Shown here piece after piece: positions 5,322 to 26,515 of a DNA stretch of 32,000 nucleotides. The stretch's first letter is position 1. Each line of letters begins with the position of its first letter. The notes beneath the pieces were generated by a model that saw nothing but the letters and a program-made list of their open reading frames with translations, did no database searches and was not told the DNA's origin. A program made the position numbers and the translations under genes. This stretch comes from Dehalococcoidia bacterium (GTDB lineage Bacteria > Chloroflexota > Dehalococcoidia > SM23-28-2), in contig JAUWYP010000011.1 in the NCBI GenBank assembly GCA_030615765.1, positions 21,867 to 53,866 of the forward strand, given 5' to 3'.

Positions 5322-5366
5322 CGCTATCGCCTGCCTGCTGCCAGCGTCGTTCTCGTTTACGCTAGC

Positions 5367-5372
5367 ATTATA
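5367..5372 (-). promoter_or_regulatory. -10 box (TATAAT) for the SdrD-B-repeat gene
   Basis: The minus strand reads TATAAT about 45 nt upstream of ATG 5321. No convincing -35. Confidence 0.35.
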
Positions 5373-5384
5373 CCTGGTACGCAT

Positions 5385-10730: not shown

Positions 10731-11627
10731 CTATGTTAGTCCTGCCATGGCCTCTTGGAGGAGCGCAGAGGAGGCTGATGGCCATGGCAGCATCGCTTCC
10801 GGCGCCGGCGGCTCGTACCCGAGCGAGCTATGGGGACGAACGGCATTGTAGTGCCGTCTCCACTGCTCGCACAGCACCTTCGCCTCCAGCACCGTATCGA
10901 ACACCTCCACGTTCAGCAACTCATCCCGCAGCCTGCCGTTGAACGACTCGATGTAGCCGTTCTCCCACGGGCTGCCAGGCTCGATGTACAGCGTCTTCAC
11001 TCCTACCCGCGCCAGCCAATCCCGGACCACCCTCGCCGTGAACTCCGGCCCATTGTCTGACCGAAGGTACGTCGGAGTCCCTCGCAGAACGAAGAGCTGC
11101 GTCAGACGCCCCAGCACCTCATCACTGGTGATCCTCCTCGCCACCTCGATGGCTAGGCACTCTCGGCTGAACTCGTCTATGATCGTCAGCAGCCGCAGGG
11201 CACGTCCATCGCTGGTTCTCGCCAGCACGAAATCGTAGCTCCACACATGGTTCCGGTAGACCGGCCTCAGTCTGATGCAGGAGCCTTCGGTCAGCCAGAG
11301 CCGCTTCCGCTTGGGCTGCCTGGCCGGTACCTTCAACCCCTCCAGTCGCCACAGCCGCTCCACCCGCTTGTGGTTCACTGACCATCCCTCCTGACGCAAC
11401 ATCGCTGTCACCCGCCGGTAGCCGTAGCGGCCATACTGCGTTGCCAACTCTACCATCCGCCTCCGAAGTCTGGGCTCATCATCTGGAGAGCGGCATGTTC
11501 TCCTCTGGGTCGAACGCGCCTGCCCCAACACCCGGCATACCCGGCGCTCCGAGACGACCTGCCCGCCGAGCGCATCACGCACCCACGCGACCACCTGCCG
11601 TCTCTTCGCCGGGCTCAGAAGTTTCCC
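10731..11627 (-). CDS. IS3-family transposase OrfB (rve integrase core), expressed as an OrfAB fusion by -1 frameshift
   Basis: ...YRNHVWSYDFVLARTSDGRALRLLTIIDEFSRECLAIEV...LRSDNGPEFTA...YIEPGSPWENGYIESFNGRLRDELLN... shows the D, D and E(N)GY.ES.N motifs. The orfB frame is open upstream to the slippery heptamer: G-K-L-L-S-P-A-K-R-R-Q-V-V-A-W. The track ORF is 10731..11594. Confidence 0.85.
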   Translation of the reverse strand, partial: GKLLSPAKRRQVVAWVRDALGGQVVSERRVCRVLGQARSTQRRTCRSPDDEPRLRRRMVELATQYGRYGYRRVTAMLRQEGWSVNHKRVERLWRLEGLKVPARQPKRKRLWLTEGSCIRLRPVYRNHVWSYDFVLARTSDGRALRLLTIIDEFSRECLAIEVARRITSDEVLGRLTQLFVLRGTPTYLRSDNGPEFTARVVRDWLARVGVKTLYIEPGSPWENGYIESFNGRLRDELLNVEVFDTVLEAKVLCEQWRRHYNAVRPHSSLGYEPPAPEAMLPWPSASSALLQEAMAGLT

Positions 11628-12126: not shown

Positions 12127-12300
12127 ATGGCGCGGGTGGGGGCTTCGGATGGCGGTAGCAGTCAGATCATGATCGAATTCGAGTGCGACTGTGGGAACGT
12201 AATTCGCGTCCCAAAGAGTCCTGCCCACAAAGAGGGCACGTGTCCAGGATGCCAGCGACTCACACGTGTTCCCTCGGGAGGAGAATACGTTGGAATTTGA
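12127..12300 (+). CDS. Small Zn-ribbon protein (57 aa; below the ORF-track cut-off)
   Basis: Own translation: MARVGASDGGSSQIMIEFECDCGNVIRVPKSPAHKEGTCPGCQRLTRVPSGGEYVGI*. Contains CxC...CxxC. SD AGGAG lies 10 nt upstream of ATG 12127; an alternative ATG is at 12169. The stop at 12298-12300 overlaps the start region of the next ORF. Confidence 0.5.
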   Translation: MARVGASDGGSSQIMIEFECDCGNVIRVPKSPAHKEGTCPGCQRLTRVPSGGEYVGI

Positions 12301-15300
12301 GGAGGCAACGTCCCTTGTTCTCCGCCTTCTCGAGGAGAAGGGGAAGGCGAAGAACAGTGAGATGATGAAGCTGTGCGGCAACGACCGAGAGTTGTTCGAT
12401 CGTGTCCGCGAAGACCTCATCTTCAACGACTTGGCTGAAGACAAAAAGGGCGTCGGGCTGGTCTACGTACGCCCGCCCTCCGAGGTGCCACCTCTTGAGG
12501 TTCCCGTGGCGGAGGACGTTCAGGAAGTAGTAGCTTCCGAGCCCAACATTCCTGACGCCGATGTCGTCATCAGTTATTCGCACAAGGACTTCGATCTCGC
12601 CCGCGAAATCGTGCGACAGCTCGAGAACGCAAGCGTCAAGCTGTGGTGGGATAAGACCGGCATCCGAGCTGGTCGGTGGCGCGAGAAGATCGTCCGCGCA
12701 ATACGATCCTCCAAGACTCTCACTGTTTTGTGCTCTATCAACTCGATGCAGTCTGAGGATGTTCGCACGGAACTTGAGTTAGCCGACTATTATAGGCGCA
12801 ATCGGCTGCCGCTTGGTCTCGATGAAACGGACTATCCCGAAAGTATCATCTACTGCCTGGTTAGCTGGCACAAGCACCGGGTTCCGATCATGGACCGCTC
12901 GGTCACCGAGTGGCTGCCGGAGGTTCTGGATGCCTTGGTAGCCCTCGGCGTTGCCTGCGACCGGCCGGCACTTCCACCCCCAGCCGTCGCTCCGGCTCCA
13001 ACCGCTGCTAAGGCTGTCAAGCCAAGCTGGCCTGAGCGGAGGGCTGTTCCCGTCACGGCTCCCCCGGTAGGCCGGCCGGGAGCGGGACGGAGGTTCCGCA
13101 TCTTCGTCAGCTCTACTTACGGCGACATGAAGGAGGAGCGGAACGCGCTCCAGCGCTTCGTCTTCCCACGGCTAAGGGAGCTTTGTTCGGTGCATGGGTG
13201 CCGGTTTGAGGCGGTCGACCTGCGTTGGGGCGTCAGCCAGGAAGCTGGCCTCGACCAGCAAGCCATGCCGATCGCCCTCCAAGAGATCGACCCATGCCGG
13301 CGCACGACGTCTCGGCCCAACTTCATCGTCCTCCTCGGCGACCGTTACGGCTGGCGCCCGCTGCCCTCCGAGATCCCGGCCCATGAGTTCGAGGAGATCT
13401 GCCGGCGTATCTCCGCAGACAAACAGCAGCGGCTGAAGGACTGGTATTTCAGGGACGATAACGCCGTCCCGCCCGACTACTGCTTGAAGCCGCGTGAAAT
13501 GGGAGGCGAGTACGAAGACTTCGCCATATGGGAAGCGGTGGAGCGCGACCTTCGTTCCATCCTGCTCGCGGCGGTGAAGGGCATGCCGCTTGAGGCTCAT
13601 GACCGTATGAAGTACGAGGCGTCGGCCACCGAACAGGAGATCGCCCAGGGGGCGTTACGGGTCCCGGACGCCCGGGAGCACGTCTACTGCTTCTTCCGGA
13701 CGATCAAGGATTTGCCACGAGATCTGAGCGGGAGGGACTTTGTCGATCTTGACAGCGAGGGCAATCCGGACATCGATGCGCGCAGACGACTGGAAGAGCT
13801 GAAGCACAAGCTACGTGGCCTCCTCCCCGATAACATCTACGATTACGAGGCAAGGTGGAACGACGGTGGCATCACCACCGATCACATCGACAAGCTGTGC
13901 GAGGACGTTTTCGACGCCCTCTCCCGGATCATCGAGCAGGAGATCGAGCGGCTTGAACAGGTTGACCCACTGGATAAAGAGATAGCAGACCACGACGACT
14001 TCGGCCAGGATAGAGCGAAGTTCTTCACAGGTCGGGCCGACATGCTTAGGAAGATCGGCGACTACGTCAAGAGTGGGGACAGTCAGCCGTTAGCGGTTTG
14101 GGGAGAGTCAGGTTCGGGCAAATCGGCGCTGATGGCCCGCGCGGCCCAACAGGTTCGGGAAGACCTACCGAATGCCGAGGTCGTCCTTCGTTTCCTCGAT
14201 GCGACGCCGGAATCCTCGGACGGGCGCGCTTTGCTCGACAGCCTGTGCCGTCAGATCTCCCGGGCCTACGGGGCGGACGAAGCCACAGTGCCCACGGATT
14301 ACAGGGAAGTGGTCGACGATTTCCCGAAGCGGCTAGCCCTGGCCACTGAGGAGAAGCCGCTCATCCTGTTCCTAGACGCACTGGACCAGCTGTCCGACGC
14401 CGAGGGGGCCCGTAGCCTCATCTGGCTGCCCGCTGACCTGCCCGAACACGTGCGCCTGATCGTCTCCACCTTGCCGGGCGAATGCCTGTCGGCGCTGGAG
14501 AGCAAGCTCTCGGACACGAGCCTCGTGGAGCTAAAGCCGATGCCGCCCGATGAAGGTCGCAAGCTCCTGGACCTCTGGCTGGAGGACGCGGGTAGGACCC
14601 TTCCGCAGCATCAGCGAGACGAGGTGCTCAGCAAGTTCGGGGCCGAAGGTCGGCCGCTCTACCTCAAGCTGGCCTTTGAGGAGGCCCGCCGCTGGAAGTC
14701 CTACACGGACCCCAGCGACACAGTACTAGCTGAGGGCATCCGGGGCATCATCCGTGAGAACCTGTTCGCTCGTCTCTCGTCGCCGGCCAACCACGGCAAG
14801 ATGATAGTCTCGCGCAGCCTAGGGTATCTGGTCGCGGCGAAGAACGGTCTATCCGAGGACGAGCTGCTGGACGTGCTGTCCAGCGATGCAGACGTCCTCT
14901 CCGACTTCAAACGTCGTTCGCCAATATCGCCGGAGGTGGAGAGGCTACCGGTGGTGCTGTGGTCTCGCCTGTACTTCGACCTGGAACCCTACCTGACAGA
15001 ACGCAGCGCCGATGGCGCCTCCCTGATGACATTCTACCACCGTCAACTCGGCGAGGTTGTGGCGGAGGACTACCTGGCCGGCGATGCGAAACCAGGGCGC
15101 CACCGCGCTCTGGCGGACTACTTCGATAAACAAGGGCTTGAAATCGAAGGCGCTCCCAATCTACGCAAGATGTCCGAGCTGCCATTCCAGCAGACGCACG
15201 GCGAGATGTGGGAAGAGCTCTTCGCCACCCTCACCAATTTCCCCTTCCTGGAAAGGAAGGCCGCCGATCTCGGAGTCCTGGAGCGCACAGACGCCGAGGG

Positions 15301-17548
15301 GAACGTGACGCGGACCCACACCGGCGTCTTCCTGCTCCAGGACGACTTCCGGCTGGCCCTGGAAAAGATGCCCGGCGACGGCGCCACGCCCGGGGGCAGG
15401 AGACCGCTGCTTGAGGTCTTCTCGCGAGCCCTGGGTCGCGAGAGTCACGTCCTTCATCGGCGGCCCGATCTCCTCTGGCAGCAGCTGTACAACCGTCTCC
15501 AGTGGTCGGAGGGTGGCCCCGAGCGGCTCGCGGCAGAGCTTCAACGCCGAACAAGGCCGGGCTCAGCGCCCTGGATGCGGGTCCGAACGCCTTCCCGGGA
15601 ATCGGAGGCGCTCATCCGAACGCTCGAGGGTCACTCTGGTCCGGTCAGAAGTTGCGTGCTGAGTCGTGACGGCTCCGTGGTCGTCTCAGCGGGCGACGAC
15701 TACACCGTCCGACTCTGGGATGCGACGACCGGCGCTGAGCGGGCCTGCCTCGTTGGCCATGACGATTGGGTCACCGGCTGCGCCATCAGCCGGGACGGCA
15801 GCTTCGTCGTATCGGCCAGCTCCGACCTCACCTTGAGGGTTTGGGATGCGGTCAGGGGGGTGGAGCGAGCGGTTCTCGGAGGCCACACGGCCGCGGTCAC
15901 AGCCTGCGCCATCAGCCCCGACGGCTCCTTCATCGTCTCGGGAAGTCGCGACGGGACGCTCAAGCTCTGGGACGTGGCCACCGGGAAGGAGCTTCGCACC
16001 CTTGAAGGCCATACGTCCGGTGTCAGGAGCTGCGCCATCAGCCCGGACGGCGCCTTCATCGTCTCGGCAAGCGAGGACGGGAGCCTCAGAATCTGGGACG
16101 CGGCTGGCGGGCGGGTACTCTGCACTCTCAAGGGTCACACCGACGCGGTCTTGGGCTGCGCGGTCAGCCCTGATGAGGCCTTCATCGTCTCGGCAAGTCG
16201 CGACGGGACGCTGAAGCTCTGGGACCCGTCGAGCGGGAGGGAGCTTCGCAGTCTCGAAGGCCACGGCGAGCCGGTTCGGGGCTGTGCCATCAGCGGTGAG
16301 GGCTCGTTCATCGTGTCGGCAGGCGACGACAGGGTGCTGAGGATCTGGGATTCGGCTACTGGCATCCAGCGAGCGACCCTCGTTGGCCACGCCGATCTTG
16401 TGACCGCATGCGCGGTGAGTTCTGATGGCTCGTTCGTCGTTTCCGCGAGTGACGACGGCACGCTCAAGGTCTGGGATATGACTCTCCTCCAAGAGCCCGC
16501 TGCCATCGAAGGCCACGACGGCGCAATCTCCGGCTGCGCCATCAGCGCTGACGGCGCGCTGGTAGCTTCGGCAAGTCAGGACGGGACCATCAAGGTCTGG
16601 GATTTGGCCACCGGGGTGGAGCGCGCAACTCTCGGCGGCCACATGGGCGGTGTTTTCAGTTGTACTTTCAGCCCGGACGGCTCCGCTCTTGTCTCGGCAA
16701 GTGACGATGGGACTCTCAAGGTCTATGATCCAGAGACCGGGGAGGAGCGGGCCACCCTGCGTGGCCACAGGGGCGGCGTCTTCGGCTGTGCAGTCAGCCC
16801 AGACGGTGCGTTCGTAGTCTCAGCCGGCGAAGACCGGACGCTCAAGCTCTGGGACATCGGCACCGGAATGGAGCGGGCAACGCTGGAGGGACATGTCTCG
16901 TCCGTCAATCGTTGTGCGGTCAGCCCGGACGGGTCGTTCGTCGTCTCGGCCAGCGATGACGAGACAGTCCGGATCTGGGATGCGGTAACCGGTCAGCAGC
17001 GCGCTCGGCTCGTCGGTCACGGCTCGTCGGTCTGGGGCTGCGCCGTGAGCCCTGATGCCGCGTTCGTCGTTTCAGCGAGTTGGGATGGGACCGTCAGGAT
17101 CTGGGACGTGAAGAGCGGCGAACAGCGGACTGTCCTGAACGGCCACACCGACCAGGTGTGGGACTGCTCGGTTACTCCCGACGGTGGGTTCATAGTCTCG
17201 GCGAGCCGGGACAAGACTCTGAGGGTCTGGGATACGTTCGGCCGAGAGTGCGCCTCGTTGCCGCTGCCCGGCGGAGCGCTGTCCGTGGCCCTACATCCCC
17301 ACCTGCCGTTCGCAGCCTGTGGCGACGAGAGCGGGAGCTTCTACCTCGTCGATCTTGTCGGCATCGAGTACGGGCCTATCATCGTCACAACGAGTCATGG
17401 AGGGACGGGACCGACCCTGCGCTGCCCCGCGTGTCACGGGATCTTCCCTCTCGAGCAGAGCTGGCTCGGAGCCGAGATGACGTGTCCAAACCGCGAGTGC
17501 GGCACTCCGCTCCGGGTCAACCCGTTCATCGCCGGCCTACAGCGATGA
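12266..17548 (+). CDS. NLR-like STAND protein: N-terminal wHTH-like region - TIR - DUF4062 - NACHT NTPase - helical module - 14 WD40 blades - C-terminal Zn-ribbon
   Basis: TIR: DADVVISYSHKDFDLAREIVRQLENASVKLWWDK...LCSINSMQSEDVRTELELA (aa ~97-190; conserved Glu169 at nt 12770-12772). DUF4062: RRFRIFVSSTYGDMKEERNALQRFVFPRL...NFIVLLGDRYGWRPLP (aa ~276-366). Walker A GESGSGKS at 14102-14125; Walker B LILFLDALDQ at 14360-14389. WD40: 13 canonical units GH..V..CA.SPDGSF.VSAS.D.TL.[VIL]WD plus 1 degenerate (15623-17365). C-terminus: LRCPACHGIFPLEQSWLGAEMTCPNRECGTPLRV. The start is GTG 12266 or TTG 12290, the latter with GGGAGGAG 6 nt upstream. Confidence 0.9.
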   Translation: MFPREENTLEFEEATSLVLRLLEEKGKAKNSEMMKLCGNDRELFDRVREDLIFNDLAEDKKGVGLVYVRPPSEVPPLEVPVAEDVQEVVASEPNIPDADVVISYSHKDFDLAREIVRQLENASVKLWWDKTGIRAGRWREKIVRAIRSSKTLTVLCSINSMQSEDVRTELELADYYRRNRLPLGLDETDYPESIIYCLVSWHKHRVPIMDRSVTEWLPEVLDALVALGVACDRPALPPPAVAPAPTAAKAVKPSWPERRAVPVTAPPVGRPGAGRRFRIFVSSTYGDMKEERNALQRFVFPRLRELCSVHGCRFEAVDLRWGVSQEAGLDQQAMPIALQEIDPCRRTTSRPNFIVLLGDRYGWRPLPSEIPAHEFEEICRRISADKQQRLKDWYFRDDNAVPPDYCLKPREMGGEYEDFAIWEAVERDLRSILLAAVKGMPLEAHDRMKYEASATEQEIAQGALRVPDAREHVYCFFRTIKDLPRDLSGRDFVDLDSEGNPDIDARRRLEELKHKLRGLLPDNIYDYEARWNDGGITTDHIDKLCEDVFDALSRIIEQEIERLEQVDPLDKEIADHDDFGQDRAKFFTGRADMLRKIGDYVKSGDSQPLAVWGESGSGKSALMARAAQQVREDLPNAEVVLRFLDATPESSDGRALLDSLCRQISRAYGADEATVPTDYREVVDDFPKRLALATEEKPLILFLDALDQLSDAEGARSLIWLPADLPEHVRLIVSTLPGECLSALESKLSDTSLVELKPMPPDEGRKLLDLWLEDAGRTLPQHQRDEVLSKFGAEGRPLYLKLAFEEARRWKSYTDPSDTVLAEGIRGIIRENLFARLSSPANHGKMIVSRSLGYLVAAKNGLSEDELLDVLSSDADVLSDFKRRSPISPEVERLPVVLWSRLYFDLEPYLTERSADGASLMTFYHRQLGEVVAEDYLAGDAKPGRHRALADYFDKQGLEIEGAPNLRKMSELPFQQTHGEMWEELFATLTNFPFLERKAADLGVLERTDAEGNVTRTHTGVFLLQDDFRLALEKMPGDGATPGGRRPLLEVFSRALGRESHVLHRRPDLLWQQLYNRLQWSEGGPERLAAELQRRTRPGSAPWMRVRTPSRESEALIRTLEGHSGPVRSCVLSRDGSVVVSAGDDYTVRLWDATTGAERACLVGHDDWVTGCAISRDGSFVVSASSDLTLRVWDAVRGVERAVLGGHTAAVTACAISPDGSFIVSGSRDGTLKLWDVATGKELRTLEGHTSGVRSCAISPDGAFIVSASEDGSLRIWDAAGGRVLCTLKGHTDAVLGCAVSPDEAFIVSASRDGTLKLWDPSSGRELRSLEGHGEPVRGCAISGEGSFIVSAGDDRVLRIWDSATGIQRATLVGHADLVTACAVSSDGSFVVSASDDGTLKVWDMTLLQEPAAIEGHDGAISGCAISADGALVASASQDGTIKVWDLATGVERATLGGHMGGVFSCTFSPDGSALVSASDDGTLKVYDPETGEERATLRGHRGGVFGCAVSPDGAFVVSAGEDRTLKLWDIGTGMERATLEGHVSSVNRCAVSPDGSFVVSASDDETVRIWDAVTGQQRARLVGHGSSVWGCAVSPDAAFVVSASWDGTVRIWDVKSGEQRTVLNGHTDQVWDCSVTPDGGFIVSASRDKTLRVWDTFGRECASLPLPGGALSVALHPHLPFAACGDESGSFYLVDLVGIEYGPIIVTTSHGGTGPTLRCPACHGIFPLEQSWLGAEMTCPNRECGTPLRVNPFIAGLQR
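15623..17365 (+). repeat. Tandem 126-bp WD40 coding repeats (moderately diverged)
   Basis: 14 blades at 42-aa periodicity. The repeats produce the long antisense artefact ORF 15686..16768(-). Confidence 0.85.
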
Positions 17549-19404
17549 CCCCCAAAGGCGGAATAGACACGCACGAGAGCGAACGTTCGAGCGGGACGCC
17601 TCCCCGCGCTCGGAGCGAGACGTTCTGGCGGGACCGTGTACGGCCTCTCTGGGAGGCCGTCGAGTGGCCGCTAGTCGGCCTCCTTGCGCTGCTCGCGCTG
17701 GGATTGGGGATCGACGGCTTCCGGCAGCACCTCGAGGCGAGCGGGCAATCGCACTCAGCGTCGGATGTGCTCTACCGGACGTTGCAGCTCTTCGTTCTCG
17801 AGTCCGGATGGGACTCGAGAGGCGTCAACTGGGAACTCGGCGTGGCGCGACTCTTGGCGCCTGCGGTGGCCGCGTACGCAGCCGTGCGAGCGCTGGGGGC
17901 GATCTTTCGCGAGCAGCTCCACTTGCTTCGGGTTCGCTCTTGGGGGAACCACGTCGTGATCTGCGGGTTGGGGCGAAAGGGCGTGCTCTTAGCGGAGGCG
18001 TTCCGCGCCCGCAAGGAACGGGTGGCGGTGATCGAGAAGGATGAGGAGAACAGTGCGGTCCGCAGGTGCCGCGACCAGGGCATCCCAGTCGTGATCGGCG
18101 ACGCGACGGACCTGGCCGTCCTCCGCAAAGCAGGAGTCCAGAAGGCCAAGTGTCTGATCTCCGTCTGCGGCGAGGACGGCGTTAATGCCGACGTGGCCGC
18201 TCATGCCCAGGAGCTGGTGGCCGCGAAGCCTCGTCGAAGCGGCTTCCTCCGCTCGTTCGTCCACGTCGTCGACCTCGAGCTGTGCACTCTGCTCAGAGAC
18301 AGGGTGGCTGTGGCCGGGAAGCGACACTCCTTCCGGCTCGAGCTCTTCAACGTCTTTGAGAGCGGCGCCCGCGGCTGGTTGAACGAGCACCTGCCCTTCG
18401 AGTCGGCTGGCCGAGAGGACGGCCGGCCGCATCTCCTCGTCGTCGGCGCCGGGCAGATGGGAAAGAGCCTCATCGTCGGGGCGGCGAGAAGGTGGCTCAC
18501 CCTCCATGCTGGCGCCGGCCCGCGCCCGCGGATCACCATCGTCGATCGGGAGGCGGAGCGGAGGAAGGACTCGCTACTCCTGCGCCACCCGCAGCTCGAG
18601 CAGGTCTGCGAGCTGGTCCCCGTCCGGACGGACGTCACCTGGCCGGAGTTCGAGGAGGGGAGGTTCCTCTTCGACGCCGAGGGACGCTGCGACGTGACCA
18701 CGATCTACGTCTGTCTCGACGACGACGTGCGCGGCCTAGCCGCGGGGCTGGACTTGTTGCAGCGGGTGCGTGAACACGGGGTCACGATCGTCGTTCGCAC
18801 CGCCGAGAAGGCGGGACTCGCGGCCGCGCTTGGGAGCGAGCGTCCAGGCGGCGACGGCTTGGAGCTCCTGCACGCCTTTCCGCTGCTCGACCTAACCTGC
18901 ACCCCGGAGCAGCTTCTCGGTGAGACCCCCAGCGAGCGCCTCGCCCGCACCATCCACGAGGACTACGTGCAGCGCGAAAGGGAAAAAGGCGAGACGGTCG
19001 AGACCAACCCCTCGATAGTCGAGTGGGACGAACTCCCCGAGAGCCTCAGGGAGTCGAACCGGCGACAGGCCGACCACCTCGGTGCTAAACTCAAGGCCGT
19101 CGGTTGCGGTAGCGCACCGCTGACCGGTTCGGAAGCGGAACCGATCGCCTTCTCCCCGGAGGAGGTGGAGTTGCTTGCGGAGCTCGAGCACAAGCGCTGG
19201 ATGGCCGAGCGCCTGTTCGAGGGCTGGACGCACGCGCCAGGCCCGAAGAATCTCGAGCGGAAAACAAGCCCCGCTCTCGTCGCCTGGGAGGAGCTGCCCG
19301 AAACCGAGAAGGAGAAGGATCGAGCGACGGCGGGCCAGCTGCCGGCGTGCCTCGCCCGCGCCAGCTTCCAGGTTTACCGCCTTGAGGAAGGAGCCGTGCG
19401 ATGA
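17545..19404 (+). CDS. Membrane protein: 2 TM helices (ion-channel-like) - TrkA_N/RCK Rossmann x2 - RyR domain x2
   Basis: The start ATG 17545 overlaps the upstream stop (ATGA 17545-17548); the track's longer 17080 start lies inside the NLR gene. TM helices: WPLVGLLALLALGLGIDGF and WELGVARLLAPAVAAYAAVRALGAIF. TrkA_N: HVVICGLGRKGVLLAEAF...VAVIEKD and HLLVVGAGQMGKSLIVGAA. RyR: ERLARTIHEDYVQREREKGETVETNPSIVEWDELPESLRESNRRQADHL and VELLAELEHKRWMAERLFEGWTHAPGPKNLERKTSPALVAWEELPETEKEKDRA. Confidence 0.85.
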   Translation: MTPKGGIDTHESERSSGTPPRARSETFWRDRVRPLWEAVEWPLVGLLALLALGLGIDGFRQHLEASGQSHSASDVLYRTLQLFVLESGWDSRGVNWELGVARLLAPAVAAYAAVRALGAIFREQLHLLRVRSWGNHVVICGLGRKGVLLAEAFRARKERVAVIEKDEENSAVRRCRDQGIPVVIGDATDLAVLRKAGVQKAKCLISVCGEDGVNADVAAHAQELVAAKPRRSGFLRSFVHVVDLELCTLLRDRVAVAGKRHSFRLELFNVFESGARGWLNEHLPFESAGREDGRPHLLVVGAGQMGKSLIVGAARRWLTLHAGAGPRPRITIVDREAERRKDSLLLRHPQLEQVCELVPVRTDVTWPEFEEGRFLFDAEGRCDVTTIYVCLDDDVRGLAAGLDLLQRVREHGVTIVVRTAEKAGLAAALGSERPGGDGLELLHAFPLLDLTCTPEQLLGETPSERLARTIHEDYVQREREKGETVETNPSIVEWDELPESLRESNRRQADHLGAKLKAVGCGSAPLTGSEAEPIAFSPEEVELLAELEHKRWMAERLFEGWTHAPGPKNLERKTSPALVAWEELPETEKEKDRATAGQLPACLARASFQVYRLEEGAVR

Positions 19405-22400
19405 CCGACGAAACTAGAAAGACGCGCGATCGGAGAGCGAGGGTGAGGACGCCGCGCTCGCAGCGCCGCGTCGTCGTAACCGGAGACGTGACGATGGACT
19501 GGAACCTCGCCCGAACGCGTCGAGCCGAAGGGGCGGGCGCGGCGTGGAACGCGGAGGACACGACCGAGGGCTACCTGCAGCTGGGCGGGGCGGCGCTGCT
19601 GGCGGACCTCATCCAGACGGTCGTCGATCGGTTTCCGCCGGGCGCCGAGAAGTTCGAAGTCCGCCGGGCCGGCCTGCCCGGTGGGTTCTCGCTGGAGGCT
19701 CCGGAGTTCCACCATTCCTTCGCGCTCTGGTCGGCCTACGAGTCAGCCGACACTCCCCGGGTCTGGCGAGTCAAGGAGTTCCTGGGGCTGGACCGCCCGA
19801 GCGCAGAAGCGCAGCCCGCACCCAAAGGGGAGCAGGTGGTCGATGACCCGGTCGAGGCGGACTTGGTGATCCTGGACGACGCGGCGCTTGGCTTCCGAGA
19901 CGATCGCGGGCTGTGGCCAAAGGTGATCAGGGAACCCGCTGGACTGCAACCGTGGGTCTTGCTGAAGATGGCGCGGCCCATCGCCCAGGGAGACCTGTGG
20001 GAGCACCTGCGGCAGCACTTCGCGGAGCGACTGATCGTCATCATGACGATCAACGACCTGCGCCTCTCCGAGGTACAGATCAGCCGCGAGCTCTCGTGGG
20101 AGCGAACGGGGGAGGATCTCGCCCGCGAGCTGGTGAGCAATCCGCGGGTGAACGCCCTCTCTCAATGCGCCCACGTGGTGGTGTCGCTGAACACCGACGG
20201 GGCGTTCTTGCTCTCCCGCCGGGATGAGCCAGATAGGCGGTCCCCGGGGGAGACGCGGCCCGAGTGCCACCTCTTCTTCGACCCCAAGACAATCGAGGGC
20301 GTATGGGCGCAGCAGTACCCCGGCGGGATGGTTGGCTACACCACCTGCCTGACTGCCGGTATCGCCCGCGAGCTCATGCTCATGCCTGCCGACCCCGATG
20401 TCCGCCGGGGCATCCAGCGGGGGCTCGCGGCGATGCGGACGCTCCACCTGGTCGGATATGGCTCACGGGAGCCCGACGCCCGGGCCGACCTAAAGTTCCC
20501 CTACGAGGACGTGGCCGATGAGCTGGCGCGAGAAAGGGAGCAATTCGCCGTCGCTGAGGTGCCTGCGCCACACGGCGGCTCGTGGAGGATTCTGGAGGCT
20601 CGTTACCCGGAGGGCCTCGAGCGGGTCGCCCGGCAGATCGCGCGCGAGGGGGCGGAGGTCGCGCTCGAGGGCGTGCCGCTCGGCCGCTTCGGCGATCTGT
20701 TGACGGTCGATCGCGCAGAGATCGAGGACTTCCGGAGCATCCGGTCCCTGATCCACGAGTACAGCCGCGGGCGGCCGACTCGTCCGCTCTCGATCGCGGT
20801 CTTCGGGCCGCCGGGCTCGGGGAAGTCGTTCGGGATCGTCCAGGTGGTCGAGTCTCTGCCCGGAGAATTCGAGCGGCTCGACTTCAACCTCTCTCAGCTC
20901 AACGAGCCGGCCGAGCTGCACGGCGCCTTCCACCAAGTGCGCGACGTTGCCCTGGCTGGCTGCATCCCGCTCGTCTTCTGGGACGAGTTCGACACGACCC
21001 TGGGCGGCACGCAGCTCGGCTGGCTGCGCTACTTCCTAGTGCCAATGCAGGACGGCACCTTCCAGGAAGGGGAGCTAATGCATCCCATCGGCCCTGCCGT
21101 CTTCGTCTTCGCCGGAGGCACGAGCCACCGGATGGCTGCGTTCGAGACGATGGCGATGAAGGACACGGGGGCGAAGGCGACCGACTTCCTGAGCCGGCTC
21201 AAGGGCTACGTCGACATCCTAGGGCCGAACCCCCGCGACGGGGACGCAGCCACTGATCCCTACTACCTGATCCGCCGGGCGATCTTGCTGCGCTCTGTGC
21301 TTCTGCGCGACCAGCCAGATTTGTTCGAGCTGCGGGATGGCAACAAGTTGCTGCGGATCGATTCCGGTGTGCTGCGCGCGTTCCTCGAGACGCGCGAGTA
21401 CCGACACGGAGCGCGTTCGATTAAGGCGATCGTGGCGATGAGCCTCCTCCACGGCAAGACGCACTTCGAGCGCTCCGCCTTGCCCGCGGCGGGGCAGCTC
21501 GACGTTCACGTCCAGGCAGACGACTTCCTCGCGCTGGCACAGCGACACGAGCCGGAGGAGGAGGCGCTCGAGGCGCTCGCAGAGGCCGCGCACGTCGTCT
21601 ATTGCGCGGGGAGGCTCGAGGAGGGTCACAGGTGGCGCGAGCGGGACGTCGCGTATCTCGAGCGCCACAGCCTTCTCAAGCCGTTTGCCGCTTCGGCGTA
21701 CGACGGCACGGAGATGCTACCCGCCCTCGTCTCCTGGGAGAACCTGAGCGGCGAGGACAGGGAGCAGAACCGCGGCCAGGTGCGCCACATCCCGAGCCGT
21801 CTCGAGGCCCTCGGTTACGTCATGCGGAAGGCGCGCGGCGGCGTCGACCCCACTGCTTTCGTCCTCTCTAGGCGCATGCTTGAGCTCCTCGCCGAACAGG
21901 AGCACGAGCGCTGGCTCTGGGCAAGGCTGCGAGCGGGCTGGCGCTACGGCGCGATCAGGAACAACCGCCGGAAGCTCCATCCGGCGCTGCTGCCCTGGCG
22001 TCCGCTCTCGCTGGAGGAGCGCGAGCAGAGCTATGGGGTCTGCGAAGACCGCCTGGGGCCGGGCGAGCTTGTTGAAGGCGACAAGGAGAAGGACCGCGAG
22101 GCCGTGCGCGAGATGACACAGATCGTCGCCGCGGCAGGGTGCGAGATCGTGAAGGTGCGTGAGCCGGCCGTGATCGTCGGGGTAACGGGCCACCGCATCC
22201 TGGCTGAGGTCGAGAAGATCAAGAAGGGAATAGGGGAGGCGCTCGATCGGGTCGAGCGGTCGTTCCCTGGGAAGCCCCTCACGGTGATGTCCGCCCTGGC
22301 CGAGGGTGCCGACTGCCTCGTGGTGAAGCGGGTACTCGCGCGCTCGACCGGAGGCCTCGTCGCCGTTCTGCCGCTGGCCGCAGCCGACTACGAGACCGAC

Positions 22401-22730
22401 TTCGAGTCAGATGAGTCCAAACAGGAGTTCCGAAACTTGCTGGCTCAGGCAGACGAGACGATCGAGCTGCCGCCCGCTGCCACTCGGGAGGCGGCCTACG
22501 AGGCGGTGGGCGAGTACATCGTCGATCACTGCGACGTGCTCGTCACCGTCTGGGACGGCCAGGGCGCGCAGGGCCAGGGCGGGACAGGCGGGGTGGTGGC
22601 GCGCGCCCGCGAGCGTGGCCTCCCGATCGCCTGGGTGCACGCCGGCAACCGCAAGCCCGGAACGAACGAGCCGACCTCCCTGGGCACTGAGCAGGGAATG
22701 GTGACCTTTGAGCGTCTCGAGCCCGCCTGA
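19401..22730 (+). CDS. Multidomain protein: degenerate PfkB/ribokinase-like domain - AAA+ ATPase - RyR x2 - C-terminal SLOG (LOG/DprA/YpsA-like) domain
   Basis: ATG 19401 overlaps the upstream stop (ATGA 19401-19404). PfkB-like order of motifs: RVVVTGDVTMDWNL / LGGAALLADL / LIVIMTINDLRLSEV / AHVVVSLNTDGAFLLS / PGGMVGYTTCLTAGIAREL; the GAGD catalytic motif is not conserved. AAA+: Walker A GPPGSGKS (20805-20828), Walker B PLVFWDEFD, and YRHGARSIKAIV (sensor-2-like). RyR: MLELLAEQEHERWLWARLRAGWRYGAIRNNRRKLHPALLPWRPLSLEE...DKEKDREAV, plus an upstream copy (aa ~722-808). SLOG: VIVGVTGHR...SALAEGADCLVV...LVTVWDGQGAQGQGGTGGVV (22167-22655). Confidence 0.85.
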   Translation: MTDETRKTRDRRARVRTPRSQRRVVVTGDVTMDWNLARTRRAEGAGAAWNAEDTTEGYLQLGGAALLADLIQTVVDRFPPGAEKFEVRRAGLPGGFSLEAPEFHHSFALWSAYESADTPRVWRVKEFLGLDRPSAEAQPAPKGEQVVDDPVEADLVILDDAALGFRDDRGLWPKVIREPAGLQPWVLLKMARPIAQGDLWEHLRQHFAERLIVIMTINDLRLSEVQISRELSWERTGEDLARELVSNPRVNALSQCAHVVVSLNTDGAFLLSRRDEPDRRSPGETRPECHLFFDPKTIEGVWAQQYPGGMVGYTTCLTAGIARELMLMPADPDVRRGIQRGLAAMRTLHLVGYGSREPDARADLKFPYEDVADELAREREQFAVAEVPAPHGGSWRILEARYPEGLERVARQIAREGAEVALEGVPLGRFGDLLTVDRAEIEDFRSIRSLIHEYSRGRPTRPLSIAVFGPPGSGKSFGIVQVVESLPGEFERLDFNLSQLNEPAELHGAFHQVRDVALAGCIPLVFWDEFDTTLGGTQLGWLRYFLVPMQDGTFQEGELMHPIGPAVFVFAGGTSHRMAAFETMAMKDTGAKATDFLSRLKGYVDILGPNPRDGDAATDPYYLIRRAILLRSVLLRDQPDLFELRDGNKLLRIDSGVLRAFLETREYRHGARSIKAIVAMSLLHGKTHFERSALPAAGQLDVHVQADDFLALAQRHEPEEEALEALAEAAHVVYCAGRLEEGHRWRERDVAYLERHSLLKPFAASAYDGTEMLPALVSWENLSGEDREQNRGQVRHIPSRLEALGYVMRKARGGVDPTAFVLSRRMLELLAEQEHERWLWARLRAGWRYGAIRNNRRKLHPALLPWRPLSLEEREQSYGVCEDRLGPGELVEGDKEKDREAVREMTQIVAAAGCEIVKVREPAVIVGVTGHRILAEVEKIKKGIGEALDRVERSFPGKPLTVMSALAEGADCLVVKRVLARSTGGLVAVLPLAAADYETDFESDESKQEFRNLLAQADETIELPPAATREAAYEAVGEYIVDHCDVLVTVWDGQGAQGQGGTGGVVARARERGLPIAWVHAGNRKPGTNEPTSLGTEQGMVTFERLEPA

Positions 22731-23073: not shown

Positions 23074-25671
23074 ATGACGCACAGCGATGACGGCAACCCG
23101 GCTCAACCGGCACCGTCCTCCCTAGCCGAGCACCGCGAGCAGCTCGCCCTCCTTTCGCGCACGCTGGAGCGCGAGGCGCACATCTTGGCGCGGGAGCCGG
23201 AGGTGCTGGCCTCGCACCTGCACAACATGGTCTACCTGGACGAGGGCGATGATGGCCCCGCGGGCCCGCTGCTGGCTCGGGCACGCGACGCCCTGTCCGG
23301 ACGCCCCTGGCTGCGCCTCATCAACCGGCCACAGGTCGGAATAAGCCGCCGGGCACTGATCCGTGTCTTGGGCGACAGAATCGGTGCCACGTGTCTGGCT
23401 TGGTCATCCGACGGGCGAGTGCTGGCCGTCGGAACCATAGAGGGAATAGCACTGTGGATGGCAGATGGGATACCGGGTCCGGGCCTAGATCTTCGAGTCA
23501 GCGTAGAGACGCTGATCTGGTCACCAGACGGTCGACAGATCGCGTGGACGGACGAAGTTGGGAAGGCCCATGTGTGGACGCCCGGAACAAGCGAGCATCC
23601 AAGAAGCGTACAGGGCCACGGCCGAGACCAGGTCACATCGGTAGGCTGGTTGGATAACGAGACGCTCTTTCTCGCCACCGAGTTCGACGGCATTTTCGTC
23701 TGGCGTCTAGGAGCTCCAGGTCTGCGCCCCAGAGTGCTTGTGAGACAGAAAGAAGATGAGAGCGTGGAGACAGCTGCAGTGAGCCCGGATGGGAAAATGC
23801 TTGCCTGGACCGAGTACTCGAGTGTCTACATCAAGTCTCTTATCCCGCCCGGCCGTCGCACCTGGCTCGGTGCGTGCCACGATGTCGTTAAGTACTTGTC
23901 GTGGTCTGTGGATTCAATGTACCTTGCCTGCGCGGGGGACGGCTATGGGGTCACGATCTGGAGCGTTGAGACGAGGGCACCATTGACTATCGACGACGCG
24001 GCCCCTCCCCTGGCGTGGTCGCCGCGCGAATACACGTTGGCGTCCGGAGGGGATGGAACAGGAATTTACCTGTGGGATGGCCGCACCGGGAAGCCTACGT
24101 CGGTCCTCTACGGCCATCTCGCCTGGCTTGAGAGTCTAGCTTGGGCTCCAGACGGAAGGACTCTAGCATCAGGCAGCCACGATGCGGTGCGTTTGTGGGA
24201 CGCGGAGACGGCTACAAGGTGGCCGGGAACCAGGCAGAGGAAGCTTACCGAAATCCAGCGGCGTCGCTTGCCGGAGGTGAAGGATGTCGAGTGGTCCTCC
24301 GATGGGCAAGCATTTGCCTCAACCCATTACGAAACAAGCCGAAGGAAATCAGCTGTCTGCGTCTGGAAGGGGAAAACCGGTGACGAAGTCGCGATTCGTG
24401 AGGGTCTCGGGTTTGGCCAGCCCCGAATTGCCTGGTGTCCCGCTATTGATGTCCTATCGATGGCAATTGATTTCAACCTCATCTCGTGGGCTATTCCGGT
24501 CGATAGGCCGCTCAAAGGGCACGAAGGCGAAATCGATGCCCTGGCGTGGTCACGGCGCGGCGACTTGCTGGCCTCCGGTGATACAAAGGGAACGACACGC
24601 ATTTCCTGTGCCGCTAGCGTGTTTCATCTAGCTAAGCGTATGGGGGTAGATCAGTGGGCATCGCGATTGGGCGACGAGGATGATTGGACATGGGAGACCG
24701 GCGAAGGGTCCATCTGCAACTTGGAGTGGTTAGGAGAGGACGAGGTGTTGGTGGGGTTCGTACTCGGCCCGGGAATAGACATGGAGGCAGCAGAAGGTGG
24801 CGGTGCCTCGTATGTGAATCCACAGAAAGCGGCCATTTGGCATCTTGACTCAGGACGTCAACACCTGATCCCAGTCGGTTACGGGAGCGGCCGTCGCGAC
24901 GCCTTGAGGTGCTCGCCCGTCGGGTATCGCTTTGCAGTGTCGCATCTGAAACACCCCAAGAAGGAGCCGACAAGCCTGCAAGATGCCATGGCGCCTCTGC
25001 AGCATCTTACATCGATATGGGACGCTCGAGGTCTGCGCTGCGAGGTGGAGTTGGAGGGCGACGTAGCGACGTGCGGGTGGTCTCCAGACGGCTCTATACT
25101 GGTACTAGAGCGCGAAGATGAGTTGGTTCTTTGGGACAGCACTAGGCGGAAACCACGTGAGGTCTTGAAAGGCCATGGGCAGATTCAGGATGCAAGCTGG
25201 TCACCGAACAGCAGCTCATTTATATGGACCTCCGTTGATGCGAGCGTATGGATGTGGAACACGACGAACGGTGTAACGCGTCTGCTCCCGCCAGCTAGCG
25301 GGGGAGCGTCACGTCTTCTGTGGGCTCCTGACGGTGAGAAGTTGGTTTTGGCTGGCGTCTATGAGTACGACGCTGACTCCGAAGAGGACTTCCGAGAAGA
25401 GCAGTCAAGTCCTCGGTTGCCTCAAGTGGTGGACTTGTGGGATATGATCTCTGGCAGTTCAGTCGCGCGTGCGTACTGCCTCTCCCCTGTTCTTGCCCTC
25501 CAGTTCAGCTCGGACGGCCGCATCTTGCGGGCAGCGGACGATGGCAGCGCCACCGGCAACCGGCCCATCCCCTACCTCTTCGAGCTGTGCAACATCGAGA
25601 TAGGTTCGCCGGCGGTGCGCCCTGTCTCGCCACAGGAAACGCCGGGCGTGGAGCGAAATGGCGAAGCTTGA
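23074..25671 (+). CDS. Divergent WD40/beta-propeller repeat protein with an NLR-type pre-WD40 helical N-terminus and no NTPase domain
   Basis: The N-terminus LSRTLEREAHILAREPEVLASHLHNMVYL...RPWLRLINRP parallels LGRESHVLHRRPDLLWQQLYNRLQW...APWMRVRTP of the NLR. Degenerate WD units follow: WSPDGRQIAWTDEVGKAHVW, VSPDGKMLAW, LYGHLAWLESLAWAPDGRTLASGSHDAVRLWD, LKGHEGEIDALAWSRRGDLLASGD, LKGHGQIQDASWSP. Confidence 0.8.
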   Translation: MTHSDDGNPAQPAPSSLAEHREQLALLSRTLEREAHILAREPEVLASHLHNMVYLDEGDDGPAGPLLARARDALSGRPWLRLINRPQVGISRRALIRVLGDRIGATCLAWSSDGRVLAVGTIEGIALWMADGIPGPGLDLRVSVETLIWSPDGRQIAWTDEVGKAHVWTPGTSEHPRSVQGHGRDQVTSVGWLDNETLFLATEFDGIFVWRLGAPGLRPRVLVRQKEDESVETAAVSPDGKMLAWTEYSSVYIKSLIPPGRRTWLGACHDVVKYLSWSVDSMYLACAGDGYGVTIWSVETRAPLTIDDAAPPLAWSPREYTLASGGDGTGIYLWDGRTGKPTSVLYGHLAWLESLAWAPDGRTLASGSHDAVRLWDAETATRWPGTRQRKLTEIQRRRLPEVKDVEWSSDGQAFASTHYETSRRKSAVCVWKGKTGDEVAIREGLGFGQPRIAWCPAIDVLSMAIDFNLISWAIPVDRPLKGHEGEIDALAWSRRGDLLASGDTKGTTRISCAASVFHLAKRMGVDQWASRLGDEDDWTWETGEGSICNLEWLGEDEVLVGFVLGPGIDMEAAEGGGASYVNPQKAAIWHLDSGRQHLIPVGYGSGRRDALRCSPVGYRFAVSHLKHPKKEPTSLQDAMAPLQHLTSIWDARGLRCEVELEGDVATCGWSPDGSILVLEREDELVLWDSTRRKPREVLKGHGQIQDASWSPNSSSFIWTSVDASVWMWNTTNGVTRLLPPASGGASRLLWAPDGEKLVLAGVYEYDADSEEDFREEQSSPRLPQVVDLWDMISGSSVARAYCLSPVLALQFSSDGRILRAADDGSATGNRPIPYLFELCNIEIGSPAVRPVSPQETPGVERNGEA

Positions 25672-26399
25672 TGTAACGGAGCCCCTGGCGAGAGCACTGA
25701 TGCGCGAGGTCGCTCCCATCGTGGAGCGGCTCACGGGCTGGCGGCTGCACGTCGAGCAGATGGCGGTGCAGATCCTTCCCAAAACCCAGGCGTACGAAGA
25801 GATCTTCCTCGCAAGACTCCAGCGCCTCTCGCCAAGCGGGGACCTCTCTGCCTTCAGCGAAGGGATCGCCCGTCGGCTGGCGGAGTACGTGCTGGAGGGG
25901 ACAACCCTCGCTGCCTATGACCACACGAACGGCACTCTGTACGTCGTCCGGGAGAATGTGGACGACAGCGACAAGGACGGGCTCAAGGTCATCCTCGGCC
26001 ACGAGCTGGTGCACCGGGGGCAGGGTCTTCATCACCCGGACCTGCTCCGACGCACGGAACAGGTGGCCGCTGAGGTGCTCTCCGCGGAGACCATATCCGG
26101 CAAGATGGAGAAGATCCAGGAGGCCAATGCGGTCTTGACCCTTTTTGGAGGGCCACGCGACCCTGGTACAGGGCGTCCTGCGCCGCCTGTACCCGAAGGC
26201 GAAAATCGAGCGCCATTGGGGGATAACGGCGCTCCTCTTTCGCAGCCTCGGCTTCCTCAAGGCGCGCCAGTACACCGTCGGCACCAAGCGTCTGGCCGCG
26301 CTCAAGTCACCGAAAGAACTGGAGGCGCTCTACCGAAGCCCTGGGCGAGTTCAAGAGCTGTTCGGCGCCGCATCAAGAAGGAAGAAGGTCACGTCGTGA
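25658..26399 (+). pseudogene. HExxH zinc metallopeptidase (DUF2342/Zincin_2-like), interrupted by a frameshift in a T5 run at 26142-26146
   Basis: Frame A (25658-) contains VILGHELVHRGQ and reads normally up to ..EANAVLTL, then becomes Pro/Gly-rich noise. Frame B (track ORF 26145..26399) continues LEGHATLVQGVLRRLYPKAKIERHWG..., giving the family-typical L(L)EGHA motif if one T is removed. ATG 25658 overlaps the end of the WD40 gene by 14 nt. Confidence 0.7.
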
Positions 26400-26515
26400 G
26401 GGCTGTTGATGACGCGAACTCCTTGGAGGGCGGGGCGTTGGCTGCGAGTTCCCGTTGATGCGGGGGAGGGTTGCGCCCCGCCTGGGCGGTCGGGTACCGA
26501 ACTTGACGGGGAACC

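Follow-up and report, generated by a model that had tools for sequence, protein, structure and literature searches.

A 32,000-nucleotide stretch from a Dehalococcoidia bacterium (contig JAUWYP010000011.1, positions 21,867 to 53,866 of the forward strand) carries a gene that raises a simple question: why should a protein built like a ligand-gated ion channel end in a pair of domains known from the animal ryanodine receptor, and be encoded directly behind a TIR-bearing STAND/NLR protein? We call this whole stretch the window, count coordinates from its first letter, and call the 619-residue product of the gene the target. We propose that the target is the membrane effector of a conflict system centred on NAD+ and ADP-ribose (ADPR), and that it works as a P-loop channel of a non-K+ type. 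The target very probably belongs to a conflict system of this kind; the whole chain from signal to open pore is a serious candidate that we place slightly short of an even chance. What is new here is the combination of effector and sensor module, whereas nucleotide-signal-activated membrane effectors of TIR/STAND immunity are already known as a kind.

17545-19404, plus strand: target gene, a channel-like protein of 619 amino acids with a two-transmembrane (2TM) P-loop-like module, two RCK domains and a pair of RyR (Repeat12, R12) repeats.

The frame and the start of the gene are settled by its surroundings and its homologues. The ATG at 17545 overlaps the TGA of an upstream open reading frame (ORF) for 1760 residues in the tetranucleotide ATGA, and the stop codon at 19402-19404 overlaps the ATG of a downstream ORF for 1109 residues (gcgATGAcc). 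Because of these start and stop overlaps on both sides, the upstream NLR gene, the target gene and the downstream AAA-RyR-SLOG-like gene are translationally coupled, and the downstream gene is part of the same unit as the target. In the ORF listing the frame extends back to a TTG at 17080. The homologues align from Met-1 of the 17545 start (for example, 'MTGHGGID' in homologue P0003 and 'MTPKGGID' in the target), and we therefore take 17545, not the TTG, as the real start. A search of 5.8 billion proteins returned 445 close homologues of about 600 residues, with 46-68% identity and the same two Pfam domains, and a profile of the transmembrane (TM) module matched 2,406 clusters at 50% identity, 1,340 of them at E ≤ 1e-10. 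With these relatives, the target is not a chance ORF. A scan for promoters and terminators gave counts at chance level. The parts of the target are as follows.

17665-17730, plus strand: first transmembrane helix, TM1 (residues 41-62), a hydropathy peak within AlphaFold2 helix 21-66.
17758-17829, plus strand: re-entrant 'pore-helix' (residues 72-81) and conserved LQLF-x-LESG loop (residues 81-95) at the selectivity-filter position, from AlphaFold2 and column conservation.
17830-17904, plus strand: TM2 or inner helix (residues 96-120), with W96, A101, R102 and P106 nearly invariant, from AlphaFold2, conservation and hydropathy.
17953-18387, plus strand: RCK/Rossmann module 1 (residues 137-281) with the GLGRKG motif and E164, from Pfam TrkA_N, conservation and Foldseek matches to TrkA and GsuK.
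18430-18915, plus strand: RCK/Rossmann module 2 (residues 296-457) with the GAGQMG motif and D334, from the AlphaFold2 beta-alpha-beta fold, tandem-RCK Foldseek matches and conservation.
18928-19398, plus strand: tandem RyR repeats forming a Repeat12-like module (residues 462-618), from Pfam RyR, a profile search of PDB sequences (4e-29) and Foldseek matches to RyR3 Repeat12.

We modelled the target as a monomer with AlphaFold2 from 113 homologues, and obtained a mean predicted local distance difference test score (pLDDT) of 89.7 and a predicted template modelling score (pTM) of 0.82. The membrane part of the model consists of helix 21-66 (TM1), a short helix 72-81, a loop 82-95 and helix 96-132 (TM2 and linker); the cytosolic part consists of two Rossmann folds (137-281 and 296-457) and a helical pair at 462-618. 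A preliminary description, made from the DNA letters alone, had listed a membrane module, two Rossmann modules and two RyR repeats, and Pfam, hydropathy and the model place all of these elements where it had put them. A 19-residue hydropathy scan found just two hydrophobic segments in all 619 residues, with centres near residues 43-52 and 107-113, and this agrees with the model and with the earlier view of two hydrophobic helices flanking a short segment.

Pfam TrkA_N matches residues 137-226 (E = 2.6e-20), and the second Rossmann module (296-457) has no Pfam match and is seen as a beta-alpha-beta domain in the model. The two GxGxxG motifs that had been noticed earlier are conserved in the family: there is little or no variation at G141/G143/G146 and E164, and likewise at G301/G303/G306 and D334. 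TrkA, KtrA and GsuK use a glycine motif of this kind, together with an acidic residue where beta2 ends, to bind NAD(H), ATP or ADP at the adenosine ribose. In Foldseek searches of the PDB, the model matched the TrkA gating ring 4j9v (E = 1.3e-10) and the GsuK subunit 4gx2_B (E = 1.5e-10), the latter over 539 columns against a chain of 548 residues with the pore domain included. The gating rings of CASTOR and DMI1 and full-length MthK were also matched, and the two Rossmann modules together align with the tandem-RCK proteins TrkA, GsuK and CASTOR. The family profile, run against PDB sequences, likewise matched the RCK domains of TrkA and GsuK. No TrkA_C lobes were found in the target by Pfam. 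In topology and in the order of its parts, the model agrees with an RCK-gated 2TM channel.

Does the membrane part also look like a pore? The K+ signature T-[VI]-G-[YF]-G (TVGYG) is absent from the P-loop position in the alignment of 113 members, and the target reads VLESGWD there. The preliminary description had likewise seen no TVGYG-type filter, and this part of its claim stands; the position is not empty, since the conserved LESG motif occupies it. The family consensus is Y-x-[TS]-L-Q-L-F-x-L-[E]-S-G, that is, L-[E/Q]-S-G-[S/A] at the filter. Y77, Q81 and L82 are essentially invariant among the 113 members, and L85, S87 and G88 nearly so; residue 86 is Glu in 82, Gln in 20 and Lys in 5. 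The segment between the two helices ranks among the best-conserved parts of the family. Because the defining test for a K+ filter failed, the target is not filed as a K+ channel on its sequence; and because LESG, with its possible ring of Glu residues, takes the place of TVGYG, we propose a pore of a non-K+ type. A conserved acidic or polar residue where the pore helix ends brings to mind the 'TLESW' filter motif of Na+ channels in bacteria, a motif often cited (for example, PMC7041947); we offer this as an analogy only.

The membrane region (residues 18-136) was also modelled separately, with a moderate pLDDT of 71.6. We compared this model with the PDB and found that the top 50 matches were almost all pore domains of tetrameric P-loop cation channels, including KCNQ2, NaK, Kir/KATP, KirBac, Slo2.2, KCa2.2, MthK, TREK2, AMPA and NMDA receptors and TRPV5/6 (best E = 0.9, TM-scores 0.33-0.56). 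The comparison with known channels thus supports the channel-like fold that had been suggested earlier, by the full-length match to GsuK and by the kind of protein that the membrane region resembles. It is predicted structure that argues, weakly, for homology of the pore, and from the models we consider the chances that the target is a conducting pore to be evenly balanced.

The C-terminal pair is the part that sets the target apart from other RCK proteins. Pfam RyR (PF02026) reports one stretch, residues 541-608 (E = 1.2e-12; 48.3 bits against a cut-off of 27.4), and the first repeat, at about 462-530, is divergent. Foldseek aligns the C-terminus with the two-repeat Repeat12 domain of human RyR3 over 187 columns (E = 2e-7), so that both repeats claimed earlier are recovered, the second by Pfam and the two together by structure. 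The RyR3 Repeat12 matches include entries with ATP, ADP or AMP-PCP bound.

Two preprints of 2026 show what this fold can do. The phage protein RyDEP, which has the Repeat12 fold, binds and hydrolyses the TIR products 2'cADPR and 3'cADPR (isomers of cyclic ADPR, cADPR); it contacts ribose through H75, adenine through W78, the phosphates through H100 and ribose through D117, and its homologues are nanomolar sponges (PMC13232231). RyR-Tad binds 3'cADPR, 2'cADPR and cADPR through the equivalent H129/W132, H154 and D171 (10.64898/2026.06.04.730250). We mapped these pocket positions onto the target family by spacing, in an alignment with a Bacteroides RyR-domain protein. In repeat 2, H549 is kept in 105 of 113 members, Trp or Phe at 552 in 111 and D592 in 95, and position 575 is Ser, Thr or Asn (His in 8 of 113); the target itself has H549, W552, S575 and D592. 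The corresponding positions of repeat 1 are H471, Y474, N488 and N505. In the RyR pairs of the partner proteins encoded nearby, the same four positions hold His (28/28), Trp (27/28), His (17/28) and Asp (28/28), and the RyR pair of the downstream protein in the window has the full H/W/H/D set ('EHERW...KLHP...KEKDR'). These residues make a nucleotide pocket in the RyR pair of the target plausible.

We also considered that the RyR pairs might be locus-specific adaptors, like Aravind's effector-associated domains. This was rejected, as the identity between pairs was 35.5% within a locus and 35.1% across loci, with uniform ranks. The lack of locus-specific similarity between the pairs fits a conserved ligand-binding role.

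The properties of the phage proteins suggest a different reading of the target, in which the TM helices only anchor a cytosolic nucleotide module that serves as a sponge, a RyDEP-like glycosidase or a scaffold for the RyR partners. Phage RyR-domain proteins are indeed sponges or glycosidases of cADPR isomers, repeat 2 of the target family keeps the His and Asp of the RyDEP catalytic dyad (H549 and D592), and the structural evidence for a pore is weak match by match. Against an anchor speak the strong conservation between the TM helices, which would not be expected of it, and the GsuK-like layout, which is reproduced in order as TM1, P-helix, TM2, RCK and RCK. A docking scaffold is further disfavoured because the RyR pairs of target and partners lack locus-specific co-evolution. 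We regard this reading as improbable.

If the target is a ligand-gated channel, a candidate source of the ligand lies directly upstream.

12266-17548, plus strand: STAND/NLR protein of 1760 amino acids with TIR_2, DUF4062, NACHT and WD40 propellers, from Pfam.
12563-12823, plus strand: TIR_2 domain of the NLR, from Pfam and a PDB alignment with the AbTIR NAD+ hydrolase.
13097-13366, plus strand: DUF4062 domain of the NLR, from Pfam.
19401-22730, plus strand: downstream partner of 1109 amino acids with an N-terminal domain of unknown type, a P-loop AAA/STAND-like NTPase, a RyR pair and a C-terminal SLOG-like domain, from Pfam and homology.

Pfam finds TIR_2 at residues 100-186 of the NLR (1e-14), DUF4062 at 278-367 (2.7e-10), NACHT at 609-774 (4.3e-12) and 13 WD40 stretches. 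In the alignment of the TIR domain with AbTIR, the Glu of the AbTIR motif 'NYEL' is matched by that of 'RTEL' in the window (at about residue 169). DUF4062 is a TIR-like NADase that hydrolyses NAD+ to linear ADPR (10.64898/2026.05.01.722283); the TIR-like assignment is taken from that study, and hhalign of DUF4062 against TIR alignments built from our loci was not significant (probability 0.3). By its domains, the NLR is a predicted sensor and NAD+-cleaving signal generator. The preliminary description had proposed gating of the target by a TIR product or by NAD+ loss. The preprints on RyR/R12 proteins that bind or cleave 2'cADPR and 3'cADPR, and on DUF4062 as an NADase, strengthen this proposal in its general form, and the ligand itself is something we infer. 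Gating of the target by a ligand derived from TIR or DUF4062 is a possibility that we hold tentatively and with some doubt.

A second way in which NAD+ chemistry could act on the target is through loss of the substrate. The Rossmann/RCK sites would hold NAD+ (or NADH or ATP) and keep the channel closed, and depletion by the NADases would empty them and open the pore. Both Rossmann folds retain GxGxxG and the acidic residue of beta2, and GsuK, the closest structural relative, has been deposited with NAD and ADP bound (4gx2, 4gx1). DUF4062 enzymes deplete NAD+ as they form linear ADPR, and TIR domains fused to STAND proteins are usually treated as depleters. Such a sensor would leave unexplained why the RyR/R12 pair is invariably fused to the target, and why RyR, SLOG and NUDIX domains, which are typical readers and erasers of signals, recur on the neighbours. 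We therefore think it quite unlikely that NAD+ loss alone is what the target reads.

Is the neighbourhood in the window a recurrent one? We explored this in 80 genome loci and 8 metagenome loci, which gave 85 non-redundant loci. ORFs were called by a longest-ORF heuristic, neighbours within 7 kb were clustered, and the hidden Markov models (HMMs) for context domains were iterated from the window's own domains. All loci come from metagenome-assembled genomes and many contigs are short. Enrichment was judged against the general rarity of TIR, RyR and SLOG genes.

Two large clusters of neighbours were found, one of STAND, TIR and WD40 proteins in 43 loci and one of RyR- and SLOG-bearing proteins in 42 loci; NUDIX proteins (7 loci), ClpB-like double AAA+ proteins (7) and DUF6572 proteins (6) formed smaller recurrent families. 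Pfam found TIR_2 in 24 of 60 neighbours from the first cluster, besides WD40. In the second cluster it found RyR in 26 of 42, LSDAT_prok in 9, RelA_SpoT in 8, nSTAND_NTPase5 in 7 and SLATT_1 in 3. With the HMMs, the 85 loci contained TIR in 28, DUF4062/NACHT in 17-18 and either of these in 40; a second RyR-pair protein was found in 34, the AAA-RyR type in 24, SLOG-like domains in 19, RelA_SpoT-RyR in 12 and NUDIX in 13. At least one partner class (TIR, DUF4062-NACHT, second RyR, SLOG, RelA/SpoT or NUDIX) was present in 61 of 85 loci, and in 43 of the 60 loci with at least 8 kb of flank. The immediate neighbour belonged to a partner class in 49 of 84 loci and was a TIR gene in 14 of 84.

The order of genes also recurs. 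The arrangement AAA-RyR, SLOG-like, target is found in L021, L047, L048, L082 and L084; in the window and in L002, the AAA-RyR protein itself carries the SLOG-like domain. DUF4062-NACHT stands before the target in L006, L010, L011, L013 and L035, and a SLOG-like-SLATT_3-SLATT_1 protein stands before it in L015, L019 and L076. A NUDIX gene followed by RelA_SpoT-TPR-LSDAT(SLOG)-RyR lies near the target homologue in L006, L014, L039, L060 and L086; LSDAT_prok sits on these RelA_SpoT-RyR partners and not on the AAA-RyR partners. L002, the closest relative with long flanks (62% identity), encodes a stand-alone TIR protein of 261 residues, the target homologue and an AAA-RyR-SLOG-like protein of 1108 residues in the same order as in the window.

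The vocabulary of this neighbourhood concerns NAD+ and ADP-ribose: TIR and DUF4062 cleave, SLOG, RyR/R12 and Rossmann/RCK bind, and NUDIX hydrolyses. RelA/SpoT, SLATT and the channel-like protein are its output domains. The TIR that the preliminary description had seen directly before the target is thus confirmed on the overlapping upstream gene, in a conflict context that recurs. As a correction to it, the most constant partners are other RyR- or SLOG-bearing proteins and NADases, and not the NLR as such.

The same loci bear on the view that the target is a cation or K+ channel with an ordinary housekeeping task, placed next to defence genes by chance. Those homologues that have a name are labelled 'NAD-binding protein' or 'voltage-gated potassium channel Kch', and weak domain-level matches to the NCBIfam models TrkA, KefB and Kch exist. 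We rejected these matches as evidence for K+ transport, because they score far below the family cut-offs and cover the Rossmann domain only. The family is without the K+ signature. Relatives were encoded at 286 loci among 185,579 species genomes (one genome per species), or in about 0.15% of species, and are scattered over Chloroflexota, Acidobacteriota, Gemmatimonadota, Planctomycetota, Actinomycetota, Bacteroidota, Ignavibacteriota, Aminicenantes and several Pseudomonadota; so rare and patchy a distribution is typical of accessory genes. Synteny with housekeeping K+-transport genes, raised as a concern in the preliminary description, was not recurrent: no K+-transport family occurred in at least four loci among the clustered neighbours within 7 kb, where conflict-type genes are common. 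This is the weakest of the rival explanations, and we consider it highly improbable.

The constancy of the target gene beside highly variable partners could also mean that it is an input and not an output. The target would sense that the membrane or the ion balance has been disturbed (as by phage DNA injection, depolarisation or an ion leak) and relay this through RCK and RyR to the NTPases and NADases, and RCK channels do couple ion flow and ligand state in both directions. The neighbouring STAND proteins have WD40 or TPR sensor arrays of their own, and the membrane proteins of known nucleotide-signalling systems (SLATT, ThsC, ThsF and ThsK) are outputs; these two points make a reversed direction of signalling very unlikely in our view.

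We return to the target as an effector. By analogy with STAND/NLR proteins, the NACHT-WD40 protein would detect an invader and oligomerise. Its TIR and DUF4062 domains would then cleave NAD+ to ADPR or a cyclic ADPR isomer, a chemistry known for these families, and the level of NAD+ would fall. The product, or the fall in NAD+, would be read by the RyR/Repeat12 pair of the target together with its two Rossmann/RCK sites, and the downstream protein may read the same product with its own RyR pair and its SLOG-like domain. The ligand would move the RCK gating ring and open a tetrameric P-loop pore, which might pass cations non-selectively, or Na+ and Ca2+ rather than K+. The membrane potential would collapse, and the infected cell would be arrested or killed. 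The downstream AAA-RyR-SLOG-like protein, and the RelA_SpoT-SLOG-RyR proteins of other loci, may be parallel RyR-tagged outputs or regulators of the same ligand.

Several observations weigh against this proposal. It rests as a whole on sequence and predicted structure. The model is that of a monomer and so cannot reveal a pore, no match of the separately modelled membrane region to the PDB is individually significant (E ≥ 0.9), and a profile of the TM region run against all PDB sequences returned nothing below E = 1, hence no similarity to a solved channel. The Glu at the filter position is replaced by Gln or Lys in about 22% of members, and these variants argue against an obligatory ring of four Glu residues. 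In repeat 2 the target has Ser where the phage binders and the partner proteins have the phosphate-contacting His. No recognised partner was found in 17 of the 60 loci with at least 8 kb of flank. PADLOC (PADLOC-DB v2) has no model matching the target or the downstream protein, and its matches to the NLR are at the level of the TIR domain. Finally, TIRs fused to STAND proteins are usually read as NAD+-depleting effectors and not as generators of a signal, and a Thoeris screen excluded them (10.64898/2025.12.03.692087).

In its broadest form, the proposal would be that immune signals made from NAD+ (ADPR or cADPR isomers) gate a widespread family of bacterial P-loop cation channels by way of the Repeat12 module found on animal ryanodine receptors. 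This is unlikely to hold in full, but it would have clear consequences. The long-debated link from cADPR to RyR would have a counterpart in prokaryotes, which might also be its evolutionary source, and the transmission of (c)ADPR binding from Repeat12 to a cation pore would become testable in a small bacterial protein. It would be a bacterial analogue of the plant pathway from TIR-NLR through a small molecule to a Ca2+-permeable channel. Several RyR-tagged effectors (channel, RelA/SpoT synthetase and AAA NTPase) would be switched by one signal, and the output repertoire of bacterial NLR and TIR proteins would widen, with TIR/DUF4062 NADases coupled in trans to several such effectors. A family of about 2,400 clusters labelled 'NAD-binding protein' or 'Kch' would gain a function as immune effector channels, and bacterial RyR domains, which have so far been described only in counter-defence proteins of phages that bind or destroy cADPR isomers, would gain a role on the side of the host.

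We compared the unit with known systems. GsuK (the multi-ligand-gated K+ channel of Geobacter sulfurreducens; PDB 4gx0-4gx5), MthK, Kch and CASTOR/DMI1 share the order of parts and the tandem RCK with the target. The target differs from the GsuK type in LESG instead of TVGYG, in the added C-terminal RyR/R12 pair, in lacking TM sequence homology to solved channels, and in a genomic context of conflict systems instead of ion homeostasis.

Type X Thoeris, the closest system described, consists of a TIR and an 'ion channel' effector, ThsK, and its signal is not yet known (10.64898/2025.12.03.692087). As in the target unit, a TIR stands beside a P-loop-channel-like membrane protein with the same predicted TIR-product logic; the window differs in having its TIR fused to a STAND NTPase, within a unit of three or more genes. 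We located a type X locus through the published TIR sequence and took the adjacent ORF as ThsK from gene order. This probable ThsK (L089:3369-3995, Vibrio sp. JCM 19052) has 208 residues and no Pfam match, and is flanked by two ThsB-type TIR genes. It has a K+-filter-like 'TLTYGGF' motif and is without RCK or RyR domains. That the target family might be ThsK was rejected, since hhalign of the probable ThsK against the family alignment gave a probability of 0.1. The accessible parts of the type X paper and its supplements mention neither 'RyR' nor 'TrkA' (10.64898/2025.12.03.692087).

With the known RyR/R12 proteins the target shares PF02026, the two-repeat fold, the ribose/adenine His and aromatic residue in both repeats and the Asp in repeat 2. 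Those proteins are soluble viral counter-defence proteins or the regulatory domain of a eukaryotic channel of 5,000 residues, whereas the target is a host-side fusion to a 2TM-RCK module; unlike in the phage binders, the phosphate-contacting His is Ser, Thr or Asn in most members of its family. The two RyR-domain preprints cover phage proteins only (PMC13232231; 10.64898/2026.06.04.730250), and in the literature searched we found no paper describing host-encoded RyR-domain channels or the gene neighbourhood of the target.

SLATT 2TM effectors (Burroughs et al. 2015, as cited in PMC7159879) are, like the target, predicted nucleotide-responsive membrane effectors beside nucleotide-generating and SLOG sensor genes, but their fold and sensor domains differ. 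Pfam found no SLATT domain in the target; SLATT lies on a neighbouring gene in 3 loci.

TRPM2 is the ADPR-gated cation channel of animals, with SLOG/MHR and NUDT9-H domains. The target loci share a vocabulary with it: a putative P-loop cation channel, SLOG (LSDAT_prok, 'SLOG in TRPM'), NUDIX (the 13 loci above) and ADP-ribose chemistry. In the target loci the modules are on separate genes and the channel module is 2TM with RCK and not 6TM; the likeness that we note is one of domain vocabulary.

The remaining genes of the window deserve brief mention. The NLR joins a classical TIR_2 and DUF4062 in one polypeptide. Models of the NWD1-type winged helix and of the TEP1-type propeller match it too; its layout is that of animal NWD1/TEP1, in a bacterial protein and with an additional TIR. 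For the downstream partner, Pfam gives RyR at 9.2e-19 and a weak bpMoxR/AAA match, and its C-terminal 209 residues have no Pfam match even at E ≤ 1. Homologues of this C-terminal domain are encoded by small genes that immediately precede target homologues; these genes have weak SLOG matches of the YpsA/YAcAr/DprA type, and in three loci the domain is fused to SLATT. Its SLOG label is thus transitive and weak. One further gene resembles the NLR.

30028-31998, plus strand: second DUF4062-NACHT gene, at least 657 amino acids, running past the window end, from HMMs built on window domains.

This gene possibly belongs to the same island, and with it the island would hold two STAND NADase genes of the NWD1/TEP1-like kind. 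On the minus strand at 10731-11594, some 700 bp before the NLR operon, lies an IS3-type transposase (rve, rve_3, HTH_21), a hint that the island is mobile or was recently rearranged. After the operon, on the same plus strand, follow a WD40/PD40 protein of 865 residues (23074-25671), an ORF of 266 residues without Pfam match (25658-26458) whose start overlaps the end of the WD40/PD40 gene, and a WD40 and TPR protein of 966 residues (27009-29909). A 548-residue protein of cell-surface type with SdrD_B and carboxypeptidase-regulatory-like repeats (3738-5384, minus strand) is unrelated to the target.

Some observations were made at the other loci. The RelA_SpoT-TPR-LSDAT_prok-RyR pair partners (L006 13530-16130, L014 13883-16369, L050 3268-5754 and others) usually lie beside a NUDIX gene, and are alarmone-synthetase-like enzymes with two nucleotide-sensor modules. 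The ClpB-like double AAA+ protein found beside target homologues in 7 loci has about 730 residues with AAA_2 and ClpB_D2-small (L036 11555-13741 and L037 7295-9472 are examples), and the DUF6572 proteins that recur in 6 loci are small.

The TM module was always N-terminal among the best 150 profile matches, in proteins of about 600 residues or in fragments. Mobile elements yielded little: a phage collection gave only Rossmann-level matches, and a plasmid collection gave only a distant Sinorhizobium relative. This relative (L090, Sinorhizobium meliloti plasmid pEm1132b, 203017-204648) has 26% identity over residues 74-565. The plasmid is conjugative, TPR, patatin-like and adenylate-cyclase genes lie nearby, and RefSeq splits the region into two opposed hypothetical coding sequences. 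On a metagenome contig (L008, 1-8004), kynurenine-pathway genes (3-HAO, Amidohydro_2, kynureninase-like and FAD monooxygenase) come immediately before a target homologue. The kynurenine pathway makes NAD+ de novo, and this adjacency could be coincidental or NAD-related.

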